NCBI GenBank assembly: GCA_043754515.1
Contig: JAYUUO010000071.1
Span: forward strand, 1-15,750
Direction of reading: 5' to 3'
Source of the DNA: Armatimonadota bacterium
Lineage (GTDB): Bacteria; Armatimonadota; Armatimonadia; Armatimonadales; Armatimonadaceae
DNA length: 15,750 nt
Below, piece by piece: positions 2,753-14,624 of this stretch (positions within the stretch are counted from its first letter, which is position 1; each line of letters starts with the position of its first letter). The notes beneath the pieces were generated by a model. The model was given only the letters and a program-made list of their open reading frames with translations, searched no databases and was not told the origin of the DNA. Position numbers and translations under genes: made by a program.

Positions 2753-3556
2753 TCAGAACAGGCTCAACTGTTTCTGTCCGGGCGGCGTCGGGTTCGGCAG
2801 TCCGAGTGCCGCGCGTAGATCGGCGATAGTCGCGGGCGCGTGTCCCTCGAAGAAGTTGCGTACGAACAGGTAGATCGGCTCCGGCGACTCCCGGCGCGCC
2901 CTATCTATTCGCCCCGCCCACTCCGCGACTTCCGCCGAACGGTCGAACTGACGCTCGTCGAAGCGGGCGACGCTGTTTTCCGTGCCGAGGAGCCGGATGT
3001 ATCGAAGGGGACCACCGAGATCGGTACGCTCCGTGGTCGCGGCAACTATATTGCGTTCTGCCAGGTAGACAGCGATGTTCGTTTCCTGCCAGGACGCGTG
3101 TCGCAGTTCGACGACCCAGGGCAAACCGCCGACCCCCGAGCGCGGGGCGGCGAGTATATCCGCGAACGCCGCGAGGGTGTCCTGCTCGCTCGCGGTGAAA
3201 TCGGGGGGCAGTTGCAGGAGCAGGGCACCGCAACGCGCTTCCATTCCTTTCGCGATCAGTTTCCCGAAGTCAATCGCGATGTCGGAAGTGCCCCCGAGTA
3301 GCCGACGCTCATGGGTGACGGCGCGGGGGACCTTGAACGAGAACCTGAAGTCTTCCGGTGTCTGCGCGCGCCAACCCTGGAGCGTGGACGGTTTGGGGAA
3401 GCCATAGAACGTCGCGTCAACCTCGACGGCTGTCATAACGGTCGCTAACTGCTCCAGCATCTTGGTCTGCGGCAGGTTCGCCTCGTAGAACGGCCCGCGC
3501 CAGTCGTCGTAGACCCAACTCATCGTACCGGTGTACACCGTGGCGATCTGACTCAT
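2753..3556 (-). CDS. DUF72 domain protein (YecE-like) with C-terminal QLSLF
   Basis: GT.SW.Y.DW.G.FY, VEVDATFY..P, W...TPEDFRFSFKVPR..TH, LLLQLPP, VELRH.SW, YIRL, N..EGHAP motifs. Start overlaps the upstream stop (ATGA, 3553-3556). Confidence 0.92.
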   Translation of the reverse strand: MSQIATVYTGTMSWVYDDWRGPFYEANLPQTKMLEQLATVMTAVEVDATFYGFPKPSTLQGWRAQTPEDFRFSFKVPRAVTHERRLLGGTSDIAIDFGKLIAKGMEARCGALLLQLPPDFTASEQDTLAAFADILAAPRSGVGGLPWVVELRHASWQETNIAVYLAERNIVAATTERTDLGGPLRYIRLLGTENSVARFDERQFDRSAEVAEWAGRIDRARRESPEPIYLFVRNFFEGHAPATIADLRAALGLPNPTPPGQKQLSLF

Positions 3557-4545
3557 TTGTCGGGGTTCATCGCCTCGGGGGGGAAGCGCACCACCGAATA
3601 CGGCGGCACCGTATTCTGCATGGTGTCCGGGTGCAGTATCGTTGCAAGCAGTTCGGCGGTTTCGGCGAGGCGGGGGCCGGGGCGGTTCAGGTAGGCGTTG
3701 CCGTCAATCGCGTAGCAGTCCCCGCTCCGCACGGCGGGCAGTTCGTACCAGCCCGGCAAGTCACTCAAGGTGGTAGACTCCCAGGCACCGCGCTCGGCGT
3801 CGAAGCCGCATGCGGCGAGGATGATGATCTCGGGATCGAAGCGCAACACGTCGTCCCATGGGATCACGCGCGAAGGCTCGCCGCGCTTATCAAACGGCGC
3901 GGGCACCGCGTTAACCAGGGTGAGTAGTTCCGGCGACCAGTGCCCGGCGCAGAAAAGCGGCTCCGGCCATTCCAGTAGCAGTGTTCGCGGGCGGTTGGGT
4001 GACGTGGCGGTTTCGAGTTTCACCGCCTCGAAGCGGGCGATCATCTCCCCGACCACTTCTCCTGCCTCCGCGTCGCGCCCTGTCGCCGCGCCGACCTGCC
4101 GGATGGCGTCCAGCACGCCCGAGAGCGTGGTCGGGGAAAGGTCGAGCACTGTAACGGAGCCGCCGAGTTCGGCGACTGCCTTCGCGGTGGCCTGGTGACT
4201 CGCCGCGCAGACGTCGCACAAGCCCTGCGTCAGGATCAGATCCGGCTTCAGATTCGCTATCCTCGCGATGTCGATGTGGTACAGGCCCTCTCCGGACGCG
4301 ACTGCGGCCCGAACCGCGTCGTCAATCTCTTTCGCGGAAGGCGGCACTTCGTACGGGTCGCCATCCTCGTCGAGTACCGTCTGCGGCGGGGGCAGTATCG
4401 TCTGCCGCGTGACGACGGGCAGTTCCTTTACCGTGAGCGGGAAATCACACGCGTGCGAGACCGCTACTAAATTCTCTTCCAGACCGAGTGCACAGACGAT
4501 CTCCGTCGCGAACGGCACTAACGAAACGATGCGTTGGGTAGACAT
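3553..4545 (-). CDS. BtuF-like cobalamin/iron-complex binding protein (periplasmic-binding-protein 2 fold), no signal peptide
   Basis: RIVSLVP.ATEIVCALG, VSHACDFP, LKPDLILTQ.LCDVCA, LEW.EP....GHW.PEL, DPEIIILA.CGF, LPAVR.G, DGNAYLNRPGPRL. Confidence 0.85.
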   Translation of the reverse strand: MSTQRIVSLVPFATEIVCALGLEENLVAVSHACDFPLTVKELPVVTRQTILPPPQTVLDEDGDPYEVPPSAKEIDDAVRAAVASGEGLYHIDIARIANLKPDLILTQGLCDVCAASHQATAKAVAELGGSVTVLDLSPTTLSGVLDAIRQVGAATGRDAEAGEVVGEMIARFEAVKLETATSPNRPRTLLLEWPEPLFCAGHWSPELLTLVNAVPAPFDKRGEPSRVIPWDDVLRFDPEIIILAACGFDAERGAWESTTLSDLPGWYELPAVRSGDCYAIDGNAYLNRPGPRLAETAELLATILHPDTMQNTVPPYSVVRFPPEAMNPDK

Positions 4546-4553
4546 GACGCACT

Positions 4554-4561
4554 AGTATACC
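4554..4561 (-). promoter_or_regulatory. Putative -10 element (GGTATACT) 8 nt upstream of the BtuF-like ATG
   Basis: Minus strand reads GGTATACT-agtgcgtc-ATG. The 21-bp intergenic gap has no clear Shine-Dalgarno. Confidence 0.5.
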
Positions 4562-4566
4562 GCCCG

Positions 4567-5262
4567 TCAGCGTCGCGCCATCATCGCATCCCCGACATAG
4601 CGGATCGCGTCCATCGGGTTCTGCTCCGCGACAGGGAGTTCGCCGACGAACATGGCCCGCGCCACGGGCCTCGCGTGGCCATCCACCCAGACGAAGTTCG
4701 CGGCCCGTTGGTGTCGGAACTCGATCGTGGGGGCGGGGAGCCAGTCAGACGGCGGCTCGATGGAGATGGTCTCGCCGGTCTGGCCCGGTATCGGGAAGTC
4801 GGGTATCCCCGCGTCGCCGAAAAGAACGGTCCGCGCGGGCGCGGAAAGATCCGCGAGCGGTGCGGACGCGGGCGTGTAGGTCCCGCCCACGAACATCAGG
4901 CGGCGGTTAATGCCGTAGCCGGTGCCGCCGAGGTTGTCACCCCCGGTGAAGGAGGGGCAACGATGTATCTCGCCGGATTTCAGGTACGGGTAGATCAGTC
5001 CGCGCGTCTTGTCGAGCTTCTGTCCCGGCGCGTCGCGCCCGCCGCACCAGTAGCGGAGCGTATTATACTGGTATAAGGGAAGCGTTTCGTCGTAATCCTG
5101 CGCATAGAGTAGGGACGCGGTGCCGATCTGTTTCAGGTTCGACAGACACACCGTAGCCCGCGCCTTCCCCCGCGCCTGCGCGAAGACGGGGAACAACATC
5201 GCGGCGAGCACGGCGATTATCGCGAGGACGACGAGCAGTTCGAGTAGCGTGAACGCTCTCAT
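4567..5262 (-). CDS. Prepilin-type N-terminal cleavage/methylation protein, DUF1559-like, with C-terminal H-X9-DG motif
   Basis: [31 protein letters not shown] (class III signal, E5), CLSNLKQIG....YAQDYDE.LP, and [14 protein letters not shown] (H-X9-DG). ATG 5262 is preferred to the ORF-track start 5316, which lies inside the riboswitch. GAAAGG lies 9 nt upstream of 5262. Confidence 0.93.
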
Positions 5263-5276
5263 GGACAGTAGCCTTT

Positions 5277-5409
5277 CCCCGGTTTCGCGCCGGAGGGGCA
5301 TAGTTTCTTTCCCCACGGCATTCGGACTTCAGGCGAACCTGTTACCGTTGCGCGACAGTGCCGGACTTACACCGGACTTCCCCGTTGGCGAAAAAAGCGT
5401 TATGCAGTT
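5277..5409 (-). promoter_or_regulatory. Cobalamin (B12) riboswitch, compact class-II-like architecture
   Basis: Minus strand: CCAACGG-GGAAGT-CCGG TGTAAGT CCGG (P4/T-loop)-CA-CTGT CGCGCA ACGG (P5)-TAA-CAGG TTCG CCTG (short hairpin)-AAGTCCGAATG-CCGTGG (closes P3). Downstream hairpin CTCCGG CGCGAAA CCGGGG (5295-5277) has a loop complementary to L5 and abuts the SD. Confidence 0.9.
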
Positions 5410-5415
5410 TTGAAC

Positions 5416-5421
5416 AGAGTA
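5416..5421 (-). promoter_or_regulatory. Putative -10 (TACTCT) for the riboswitch transcript
   Basis: TANNNT hexamer about 6 nt upstream of AACTGCATA, which would be the transcript 5' end near 5409. Confidence 0.35.
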
Positions 5422-5602: not shown

Positions 5603-6565
5603 TTGGAAATCAGCTTTATCGGGCTAGGGCGGATGGGCGGCAATATGGCGGTTCGGCTAACGGAGAGTGGTCACACGGTGTATGGCGCGGACCCGTCGCC
5701 GCAAACGCGTGAACTGGTGCAGGGGCAGGGTATCGCCGCGACCGTAGCCAAAGCGGGGGAACTCGCCGCTCTGTACAAGGGTACGCCGCGCATCTTCTGG
5801 CTGATGGTGCCCGCCGGGCCGATCACGGACAGTGCTATCTCCGAAATAGCGGCTACCACCTCAGCCGGGGACATCATCGTGGACGGGGGCAACGCCAACT
5901 ACAAGGACACCATTCGCCGCGCAAAGGAACTCGAATCGAAAGGCGTCCACTACGTGGACTGCGGCACTTCGGGCGGCGTCTGGGGGCTGAAGAACGGCTA
6001 CTGCCTGATGGTTGGCGCGAATGACACGGCCTTCGCCGCCGTCGAGCCGATCCTCAAAGACCTCGCGACCGAAGGCGGATACGCCCACGTCGGGCCGGTC
6101 GGCGCGGGTCATTACACGAAAATGGTGCATAACGGCATCGAGTATGGACTTTTGCAGGCGTATGCGGAAGGGTTCGAGCTACTCCACAGTGCGAAGGAGT
6201 TCAATCTGGATCTTTCCAAGATCACCGCCCTCTGGAACAAAGGGTCGGTGGTTCGCTCCTGGCTCCTGGAGCTTGCCGAGCGAGCGTTCGGCGAAGAGGG
6301 GCAGGAGTTCGAGGGCGTCGCGGACGACATTGCCGATAACGGAACCGGACGCTGGACGGTGGAAGAGTCGGTCGAGCGGGCGGTTCCGCTCCCGGTGATC
6401 ACGCTCGCGTTGCAGATGCGGTTCCGCTCCCGGCAGGACGAGTCGTACCAGGGGCAGTTCATCTCCGTCATACGCAACCAGTTCGGCGGGCACGTGATCA
6501 CCGCGATGCACAAGGACGCCGAGAATCCCGGCTCGGTTCCAGCGGGTGGGAAGAAGGATATTTAA
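5603..6565 (+). CDS. gnd: 6-phosphogluconate dehydrogenase, decarboxylating, short-chain (YqeC-like, probably NAD+-dependent)
   Basis: GLGRMG.NM, WLMVPAG, IVDGGN, DCGTSGGVWGL.NGYCLMVG, GAGHYTKMVHNGIEYG, W..GSVVRSWLLEL, RNQFGGH. 320 aa short form; TTG start with strong SD. Confidence 0.95.
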   Translation: MEISFIGLGRMGGNMAVRLTESGHTVYGADPSPQTRELVQGQGIAATVAKAGELAALYKGTPRIFWLMVPAGPITDSAISEIAATTSAGDIIVDGGNANYKDTIRRAKELESKGVHYVDCGTSGGVWGLKNGYCLMVGANDTAFAAVEPILKDLATEGGYAHVGPVGAGHYTKMVHNGIEYGLLQAYAEGFELLHSAKEFNLDLSKITALWNKGSVVRSWLLELAERAFGEEGQEFEGVADDIADNGTGRWTVEESVERAVPLPVITLALQMRFRSRQDESYQGQFISVIRNQFGGHVITAMHKDAENPGSVPAGGKKDI

Positions 6566-8065: not shown

Positions 8066-8158
8066 CGTGGCTATGCCAAAATCGATTCAGAACACACCTG
8101 CTCCGCGCAAGTGCTCGGGTGCGTGCATCTCGCGAACCGGGATCGCTGGCGAAACGCC

Positions 8159-8698
8159 GTGACCAGAGAGCAGTTCTGGAGCGTGATCGAGTCTTCGCGC
8201 ACGGGATTGGTAGTTGGTCGGACAGTGGAGGAGACGCAGGAGCAACAAGCGGAGCAACTACATGCCGCCCTTTCGCCGCTTTTGCCGGAGGAGGTCCAGC
8301 GTTTCGATCAGCACTTCAGCAAGTTCCTCACCGACGCGGACCGCTGGGATTTGTGGGGCGTCGCCTACCTCATCAACGGCGGATGCTCCGACGACGGCTT
8401 TGCTTATTTTCGCCGCTGGCTGGTCGCGCGTGGCGAGGCCGATTACACGGTGGCCTTGCGCGATCCCGATAGTCTGGTCAGTACCCTACCCGAAGGTTGG
8501 GATGACGATGCCGACTTCGAGGAGATCAAATATGTCGCGGGTGACGTATATCTAGAGAAGACCGGGATCGAACTCGCCGATGTCCCGCTACTACCCGATC
8601 TCGCCAGCGACGAGGGACGCGGAGAGACGAAAGGCGAGCCGTGGACGGAGGACGATCTCCCGACACTACTGCCCCGCATCTGGGCGCGGTTCGGTTGA
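8159..8698 (+). CDS. DUF4240 domain-containing protein
   Basis: MTREQFW.VIE, L..L.PEEV..F, WDLWGVAYLINGGCSDDGF.YFR.WLVARG, PDSL, C-terminal LPRIWARF. GTG 8159 gives the family-typical N-terminus. Confidence 0.85.
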   Translation: MTREQFWSVIESSRTGLVVGRTVEETQEQQAEQLHAALSPLLPEEVQRFDQHFSKFLTDADRWDLWGVAYLINGGCSDDGFAYFRRWLVARGEADYTVALRDPDSLVSTLPEGWDDDADFEEIKYVAGDVYLEKTGIELADVPLLPDLASDEGRGETKGEPWTEDDLPTLLPRIWARFG

Positions 8699-14138: not shown

Positions 14139-14624
14139 ATGCCCGTCCGCCGTAGCCCCGGTGTTGAAATACTGCTCCTGCTACGGTGGACGGTGGCGGC
14201 GGGCGAGCTCACGCCCGCCGCCGTGACTAAACTCGGCCCGTATATCACGCGCTACGCCGAGACGCTGAACACACGGGTACACGCGGTCGGTGGGGTAGCG
14301 GATCACCTGCATCTGCTCGCCGACATCCCGCCCGACATGCCCGCCGAGCGGGTGTCGAAGGAGTTACACGCGCCGACGGCGCGGTATCTGCGCGACGTGC
14401 TCAATGTCCGCGACTTCGCCTGGGAAGTAGCGGGCGTTTCTGTCGTTTCGGTGTCGCCGGGGGAACGTGAGTTGGTCGTCGCGTATCTTGCGGATCAGGA
14501 GGCGCGGCATGCAAGCGGCGATCTGATCCCGGCGTATGAGAGCGGCGGGGCGGCGACGGTCGTCCCCGCCTCCACGGGCGAGGAGCTTCCCGGTTGGCTC
14601 GTGGACGCGATGAAGCGGGGATAG
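14139..14624 (+). CDS. IS200/IS605-type Y1 (HUH) transposase-like protein, divergent
   Basis: HAVGGVADHLHLL..IPP (HUH), FAW......SVS, AYLADQEARH (Y...Q). The N-terminal H.VW.TKYR-type motif is degenerate. Confidence 0.7.
   Translation: MPVRRSPGVEILLLLRWTVAAGELTPAAVTKLGPYITRYAETLNTRVHAVGGVADHLHLLADIPPDMPAERVSKELHAPTARYLRDVLNVRDFAWEVAGVSVVSVSPGERELVVAYLADQEARHASGDLIPAYESGGAATVVPASTGEELPGWLVDAMKRG

Follow-up and report, generated by a model that had tools for sequence, protein, structure and literature searches.

A cobalamin riboswitch paired with a prepilin-like protein in the Armatimonadota, and a candidate pilus-based route for corrinoid uptake

Why would a vitamin B12-sensing RNA stand directly in front of a gene for a pilin-like protein? 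The question is raised by contig JAYUUO010000071.1 of an Armatimonadota bacterium (family Armatimonadaceae; assembly GCA_043754515.1, 92.7% complete), the whole of which, 15,750 nucleotides (nt), was analysed and is called the window here. On its reverse strand a cobalamin riboswitch leads into a gene for a protein of 231 amino acids (aa) with a prepilin signal and the features of the DUF1559/H-X9-DG family, and a gene for a BtuF-fold protein follows. The pairing of riboswitch and pilin gene is real, specific and phylum-wide, and a role of some kind in corrinoid uptake is, in our judgement, very probable for the 231-aa protein.

The riboswitch and the spread of its pairing with the pilin gene

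The only Rfam element above threshold in the window is an adenosylcobalamin (AdoCbl) riboswitch, RF01482, which in the Rfam scan matched positions 5408-5267 of the reverse strand over the full model (1-149) and scored 53.0 bits (gathering score 50; expectation value, E, 1.7e-7). The match ends five bases ahead of the 231-aa frame, and a Shine-Dalgarno (SD)-like hexamer at 5277-5272, 9 nt from the ATG at 5262, lies in the 3' arm of its P13 hairpin. At the level of sequence, bases 5355-5351 of loop L5 are complementary to bases 5289-5285 of the P13 loop. The L5-L13 kissing loop is an established part of switching in cobalamin riboswitches, and, as this class is known to behave, P13 would be locked and translation blocked once cobalamin is bound. 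With this arrangement, the riboswitch is predicted to stop translation of the 231-aa pilin-like protein when cobalamin is present. Most orthologues with short leaders likewise have such a hairpin with a run of purines behind it, and several other orthologue leaders are 270-410 nt long and may work differently. Strict compensation between L5 and L13 was not demonstrated, as a test with fixed 5-mers was noisy and the core pattern was unmatched in 4 of 28 leaders, and minimum-energy folding of the leader, which was no better than that of shuffles (z 0.46), was given no weight because this is expected of a ligand-stabilised, pseudoknotted RNA. No sigma-70-like promoter was found, and a GTG at 5316 was rejected as the start codon of the pilin-like gene because it lies inside the aptamer.

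Among its own paralogues the gene stands alone in this pairing. The source genome has 63 frames with a prepilin motif, 51 of them full-length with the DG motif, and a cobalamin riboswitch accompanies one of these 51; a profile of the subfamily head domain gives the 231-aa protein 256 bits and the other 50 paralogues at most 54. In the family, a head-domain search found a match in 27 of 31 genomes (25 at E below 1e-22), and each of the 25 family orthologue loci has a cobalamin-clan match upstream on the same strand, 17 of them over the gathering score and all with E<=0.025. Across the phylum, the profile matched in 130 of 151 Armatimonadota genomes. Riboswitches were scanned in 72 of these 130, picked for carrying the subfamily, and were compared with 97 listed profile matches from those genomes, the weaker rows (67 in the phylum search) lying outside that list. 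On this basis 75 of 95 riboswitches fall within 1 kilobase (kb) upstream of a listed match, as happens in 69 of the 72 selected genomes (71 if the distance is extended to 5 kb).

A control set of 35 DUF1559 loci, chosen only by their shared motif, separated in the same way: a riboswitch accompanies 10 of the 11 loci scoring above 90 bits against the subfamily and 2 of the 24 scoring below 70 bits, both of the latter in Lentisphaeria. When 106 head domains were placed in a FastTree phylogeny, all 30 riboswitch-linked sequences fell into one group (Shimodaira-Hasegawa, SH, support 82), which also holds 3 Lentisphaeria proteins and 6 high scorers that have no switch close by; none of the 50 source-genome paralogues fell inside it. 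The pairing extends to the Verrucomicrobiota, in which 39 of 81 genomes have a profile match and 8 of the 19 top loci a cobalamin-clan match (4 over the cut-off), and at two other loci the pilin follows DUF4465 genes.

The initial annotation of this DNA had described a well-formed cobalamin riboswitch on the ribosome-binding site of a class-III-signal, DUF1559/H-X9-DG protein and had suggested that the protein is linked to B12. The Rfam match over its cut-off, overlapping the ribosome site, confirms the former, as do the PF07963 and PF07596 scores and the literal motif given below. The B12 link proved wider than the window, and the checks suggested with it, a covariance-model scan, a count of riboswitches upstream of homologues and a structure prediction, returned a match to RF01482, a switch at every family orthologue locus and a pilin fold.

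Fold, operon partners and genomic setting of the pilin

The prepilin signal of the 231-aa protein is recognised by two models, PF07963 (N_methyl; 25.7 bits against a cut-off of 21.2) and TIGR02532 (26.2 against 16.3). The match to DUF1559 (PF07596) is weak, at 24.1 against 23.3, and TIGR04294, the H-X9-DG model, stays at 14.5 against a cut-off of 19 although the motif is literally present (H184-X9-D194-G-H196); the orthologue at locus L069 reaches 22.2. An AlphaFold2 model built from 147 sequences, which replaced an earlier one from 28 close sequences that was discarded at a mean predicted local distance difference test (pLDDT) of 54, has a pLDDT of 95.7 and an N-terminal helix of 51 residues (6-56). 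Structural comparison of this predicted model returned pilins or pseudopilins in all top 20 rows, the best being PilA4 (6xxd; Z 5.8, root-mean-square deviation 3.7, 122 residues aligned), with ComP (5hz7) at Z 4.2. The protein is predicted, from this model, to have the type IV pilin fold, in which a long N-terminal helix packs against a head with a beta-sheet. Foldseek gave no match to the model in the PDB at E<=0.001, solved pilins showed no sequence match outside the N-terminal helix, and the head matched Atlas clusters without names. Nothing in the protein corresponds to the beta-barrel and plug (~600 aa) of BtuB, so that any analogy to BtuB is functional only, and instead of an ABC (ATP-binding cassette) substrate-binding fold behind the class III signal, as in the bindosome discussed below, the head is predicted to be pilin-like. 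Proteins of a sister subclade (L069-L089) have an acidic DxDxDG-type tail, absent from the Armatimonadaceae proteins, which we take to resemble a calcium-binding loop.

The initial annotation had also named YWCGGRD, HRCPSF and the histidines of H-X9-DG-H as candidate ligand residues, a proposal that does not survive comparison: neither the His of HRCPSF nor the Cys of YWCGGRD is constant in close homologues, and W72, C102, H184, D194, G195 and H196 are retained in 88-100% of the 50 paralogues outside the subfamily and are therefore family-wide rather than B12-specific.

The genes that follow the pilin change from locus to locus. At 19 family loci, the downstream genes encode a PEP-CTERM protein (7), a DUF6580 protein (3), a BtuF-like protein orthologous to the 330-aa protein of the window (6) or a second BtuF-like type (8); five loci are without a B12-like neighbour, and one meets a contig edge. 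In 5 of the 19 the pilin is the only recognisable target of the switch, which argues that it is not a passenger. At 20 loci from other families the pilin leads genes like those for BtuF, FecCD and an ABC ATPase (L171, L172, L179), cobU-cobT-cobS (L175, L182), cobB or cobA (L171, L170) and secreted proteins, and about six of these loci, judged by eye, have no recognisable partner; the BtuF-, FecCD- and ABC-ATPase-like series recurs behind the pilin at L137. Single frames join the pilin to DUF6580 (P0102) or to a PEP-CTERM protein (P0098, L270), either as real fusions or by read-through, and DUF4465-PEP-CTERM genes precede the pilin in L268 and L270. The pilin is the constant element while the downstream genes change.

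Some loci add observations of their own. At L183 (G131:C1) a cobalamin riboswitch is followed by nrdA and nrdB, for class I ribonucleotide reductase, and then by the pilin, which places a B12-independent isoenzyme and the pilin under a single switch. A DUF5522 module is fused to, or overlaps, a BtuF-like gene in the cobalamin operons at L045:8123-9223 and L172:4326-5294. In the source genome two cobalamin riboswitches were found, that of the window and a degenerate one on C68 (L060:4040-5049; 20.8 bits with Rfam, clear with a local profile). The latter precedes a gene for a 220-aa PEP-CTERM protein, a candidate surface B12 binder from a family with more than 100 homologues; searches with this partner family found no Pfam domain beyond the anchor, no PDB relative and only Atlas clusters without names.

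B12 crosses the outer membrane by the textbook BtuB-TonB route, and the distribution of the pilin was compared with that of BtuB-like receptors. In the 151 genomes no Armatimonadota receptor reached the TIGR01779 cut-off for BtuB, and the best BtuB-like receptors sit directly behind cobalamin riboswitches. Riboswitch data covered 111 of these genomes, a receptor being counted as riboswitch-controlled when a switch lay within 2 kb upstream. Such a receptor is present in 14 of the 21 genomes that have no pilin match, in 6 of 18 with weak matches and in 2 of 72 with strong matches, and several of the remaining 12 weak-match genomes do have a switch-linked pilin. The 22 genomes with a riboswitch-controlled receptor span 8 families, and in 20 of them a second search with a broader profile found no pilin match above 76 bits and none behind a switch. 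The pilin and riboswitch-controlled BtuB-like receptors are near-exclusive in their distribution. The two TonB-receptor-like genes of the source genome have neither a riboswitch nor a BtuB match.

At four loci (L210, L213, L214 and L205, in G139, G106, G094 and G130) the switch controls a secreted protein in genomes with neither a strong pilin match nor a switched receptor, and the L205 protein, with dockerin and YncE/DUF5074 propeller matches, is BtuG-like. At L211 (G185:C40) one of seven cobalamin riboswitches precedes a long prepilin-motif protein outside the subfamily (10 bits); this genome also has a switch-controlled receptor.

The source genome needs B12, as MetH is over its cut-off and NrdJ is the only ribonucleotide reductase found, while MetE and CobS were not found in it; its NrdJ (C116, L059) contains an intein. 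CobS occurs in 2 of the 31 family genomes, both congeners of the source genome, and in none of the 17 high-quality ones. For transport there is one stand-alone BtuC-like permease, and the pilus machinery comprises PilM, two PilB-like ATPases, the retraction ATPase PilT, five secretin matches and a prepilin peptidase match. Three secretin genes stand in tandem on C201 (L275), separate from the rest of the pilus genes; C306 (L277) has three short pilins in tandem that are candidate major pilins. The only thiamine pyrophosphate (TPP) riboswitch found in this genome (58.9 bits; C309:2883-3970, L189, L279) stands directly upstream of a different DUF1559/H-X9-DG paralogue, followed by thiamine diphosphokinase. 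This arrangement, checked in the source genome only, fits the idea of ligand-specific paralogues. Elsewhere in the family, G019 (85% complete) has neither an orthologue nor a riboswitch match and has strong MetE matches in pieces.

Within the window (Table 1), 21 base pairs (bp) separate the pilin-like frame from that of the 330-aa protein (4545-3553, reverse strand). This protein matches Peripla_BP_2 (PF01497) with 74 bits against 27.5, and its best PDB match is a vitamin B12-binding protein (5ysc, E 2e-12); the BtuF equivalog NF002894 gives 35 bits against a cut-off of 234. Merely two in-frame codons lie upstream of its ATG, and hence it has no signal peptide; six orthologues likewise begin 1-4 residues ahead of the first strand. 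It was rejected as a periplasmic BtuF, there being no room for a leader, and judging from its sequence is likely a cytoplasmic corrinoid-binding protein. The fold and spacing given for this neighbour in the initial annotation hold, whereas an exported BtuF is not supported. The annotation was also right that btuB, btuC and btuD are missing from the window: none is among the nine window proteins scanned, and the FecCD and TonB-receptor matches of the source genome lie on other contigs. A DUF72 cluster was absent among the neighbours of 20 related loci, and the DUF72 gene is probably a local passenger. The other genes of the window, encoding Tpt1/KptA (1-468) and pyridoxamine-oxidase-like (538-1065), VanW-like (1187-2707), 6-phosphogluconate dehydrogenase (5603-6565), DUF4240 (8111-8698) and IS200-like (14139-14624) proteins, are not conserved beside pilin orthologues.

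Table 1. Features of the pilin locus in window coordinates
Feature	Position	Strand	Basis
Cobalamin (AdoCbl-class) riboswitch aptamer with P13 hairpin	5267..5408	-	Rfam RF01482
Loop L5, predicted kissing partner of the P13 loop, 5-6 bp	5350..5355	-	complementarity in sequence
P13 hairpin (loop 5289-5283; SD-like hexamer 5277-5272 in 3' arm), predicted translational OFF switch	5272..5296	-	Rfam alignment, coordinates
DUF1559/H-X9-DG prepilin-like protein, cobalamin-regulon subfamily, 231 aa	4567..5262	-	open reading frame, Pfam, AlphaFold2, subfamily profile
Class III (prepilin) signal: 3-residue leader, Ala -1, Phe +1, Glu +5, hydrophobic helix; predicted cleavage	5191..5262	-	PF07963, TIGR02532
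H184-X9-D194-G195-H196 family motif, not B12-specific	4675..4713	-	literal motif; 90-100% of 50 paralogues
BtuF-fold protein, 330 aa, without signal peptide	3553..4545	-	PF01497, 5ysc, start position
DUF72 gene, start overlaps BtuF-like stop by 4 nt	2753..3556	-	PF01904, 154 bits

A proposed uptake route and its alternatives

We lean slightly towards a reading in which the 231-aa protein is a minor pilin that binds corrinoids and, mounted on a retractile type IV pilus, takes over the role of BtuB by bringing B12 in through a secretin. Under B12 shortage the protein would be made, cleaved by the prepilin peptidase and built into the pilus. Outside the cell it would bind corrinoid, perhaps handed over by the co-regulated PEP-CTERM surface proteins, and retraction of the pilus would pull the loaded pilin through the secretin. 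An inner-membrane transporter, BtuCD-like or of the DUF6580 type, would then take up the vitamin, which the leaderless BtuF-fold neighbour would retain in the cytoplasm, ready for MetH and NrdJ. More broadly, though with less confidence and short of an even chance, the DUF1559/H-X9-DG proteins may form a library of ligand-specific minor pilins by which a retractile pilus imports small nutrients without TonB-dependent receptors, the present subfamily serving B12, the TPP-switched paralogue B1 and the dozens of further paralogues other nutrients.

Several observations weigh against a B12-carrying pilin. Among the 97 listed matches, 23 are without a riboswitch inside 1 kb, although 4 of these lie further down riboswitch operons; the support for the tree group is modest; and the genomes are related, so that the counts overstate independence. 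The structural match to pilins scores low (best Z 5.8) and says nothing of function. No subfamily-specific His or Cys ligand was found, and the positions enriched in the subfamily are mostly small (G74, G88, G115, D150, position 152 and G224); the enriched Gly and Ala with D150 would be compatible with a wider pocket. Two genomes, G136 and G154, have both the pilin and a riboswitch-controlled receptor, and 7 of the 21 genomes without the pilin gene are also without such a receptor (three have no switch match, three a switch ahead of another secreted protein and one a switch at a contig end). A gene of the TonB-receptor family is present in 38 of 41 genomes and could import B12 unregulated. As to demand, MetE-like matches occur in 22 of the 31 family genomes, mostly short and strong in two, and the lack of CobS in the source genome may be an assembly gap, given its completeness and the presence of CobS in 2 of 3 congeners.

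The same evidence can be read in other ways. The pilin might not bind B12 itself and might act as an adaptor by which co-regulated surface proteins that bind B12 (PEP-CTERM, DUF4465 or beta-propeller proteins) are docked, displayed or exported on a pilus machine. We consider this unlikely. Its support comprises a PEP-CTERM protein directly downstream of the pilin in 7 of 19 family loci, a PEP-CTERM gene as the only other cobalamin-riboswitch target found in the source genome, the PEP-CTERM-pilin single frames P0098 and L270, the DUF4465-PEP-CTERM genes ahead of the pilin in L268 and L270, and a pilin without a specific metal-ligand residue. Against it, the pilin is often alone or directly ahead of btuFCD-like genes without a surface partner, the partner families change while the pilin stays, and the PEP-CTERM family of the source genome has no solved relative linking it to B12. 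Somewhat less probable again is a periplasmic corrinoid binder, anchored in the inner membrane by a pilin helix that never enters a filament, which as a substitute for BtuF would pass B12 to BtuCD or DUF6580. That both BtuF-like types of the family appear to lack signal peptides, and that tblastn with four BtuF-like queries found just those two types in the source genome, speak for such a substitute, as do the stand-alone BtuC-like permease, the DUF6580-pilin single frame P0102 and the Ala, not Gly, at the -1 residue. Yet in other families the pilin adjoins BtuF-like genes whose N-termini, by eye, resemble export signals (L171, L172, L181, L182), and it is an outer-membrane receptor that tracks the absence of the pilin.

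A function in B12 starvation other than corrinoid uptake, whether cobalt capture or attachment to partner cells or surfaces that produce B12, appears improbable. Cobalamin riboswitches do regulate cobalt transporters, minor pilins are often adhesins, and some Lentisphaeria pilins precede cobalt-factor methyltransferase-like genes (L137, L254). However, the pilin shares its operons with genes for corrinoid import and salvage, and with CobS so rare (2 of 31 family genomes, none of the 17 high-quality ones) nothing indicates cobamide synthesis in most carriers, a point against cobalt; the cobalt capture entertained in the initial annotation is thus unlikely, and cobalt was rejected as the main ligand. 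The exclusion with BtuB-like receptors also fits transport better than either function. That the pilin gene is a passenger behind a riboswitch meant for the downstream genes, with no role in B12, we hold to be very improbable. In a family of 63 prepilin-motif frames one locus could conceivably come to lie beside a switch by chance, but this explanation is already contradicted: the switch overlaps the gene's own ribosome site, all 25 orthologues keep the switch while downstream genes change or vanish, and it accompanies 2 of 24 low-scoring paralogues.

Related systems and significance

The BtuB-TonB and BtuFCD systems of E. coli and Bacteroides share with the pilin the same regulator, the same lead position in the operon and similar downstream partners, and within the phylum the pilin and BtuB-like receptors are near-complementary in distribution; the pilin itself has no beta-barrel or plug. 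ComP and other minor pilins of competence DNA uptake share the pilin fold predicted here, and PilB-like, PilT and secretin genes are present in the source genome. Competence pili import DNA by retraction; in the proposed minor-pilin route the cargo would be a 1.4-kDa cofactor rather than DNA.

The 231-aa protein shares its prepilin signal, DUF1559 (PF07596) stretch and H-X9-DG-H motif with the wider DUF1559/H-X9-DG (TIGR04294) family, but the cobalamin subfamily is mostly single-copy, is tied to one vitamin regulon and is, in the window, below the TIGR04294 cut-off. Excerpts of the literature treat its members as a large set of paralogues whose function is unknown, or as putative solute binders (PMC10632474, PMC2754498), and describe, in Fimbriimonas, 79 pseudopilin-like genes interpreted as attachment pili (PMC4072686). 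A partial parallel is the Sulfolobus bindosome (Bas system). According to excerpts of PMC4371748, pilus machinery there assembles proteins that bind nutrients for scavenging and bear the signal peptides of type IV pilins. The bindosome subunits are big binding proteins of the ABC type that have borrowed a signal, and the archaeon that makes them has no outer membrane, whereas here the entire protein is predicted to be a pilin and the host is diderm. The BtuG, BtuH and BtuJ proteins of Bacteroides, according to excerpts of PMC13398666, provide riboswitch-regulated extracellular B12 capture, with DUF4465 a family shown to bind B12. The Bacteroides proteins, whose folds are of the propeller or jelly-roll kind, pass B12 on to BtuB; in L268 and L270, DUF4465 genes adjoin the pilin. 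Neither "pilin" nor "prepilin" appears in the main text of PMC13398666, and no paper was found on the pairing of DUF1559 or prepilin proteins with a cobalamin riboswitch in a search that did not cover supplements and subscription journals, where regulon tables could list it. The parts, riboswitch and pilin fold, are of known kinds; for the system they would form, no characterised member was found.

In summary, in the majority of the genomes sampled from this diderm phylum a pilin appears to stand where BtuB-TonB stands elsewhere, and a paralogue family among the largest still uncharacterised gains a named candidate ligand together with a small soluble domain. If the proposed route is true, DNA is not the only cargo that type IV pili bring in, small molecules being imported too, and a library of ligand-specific pilins, if true in its turn, would be a new general route of uptake across the outer membrane in the Armatimonadota and in bacteria of the Planctomycetota-Verrucomicrobiota-Chlamydiota (PVC) group.

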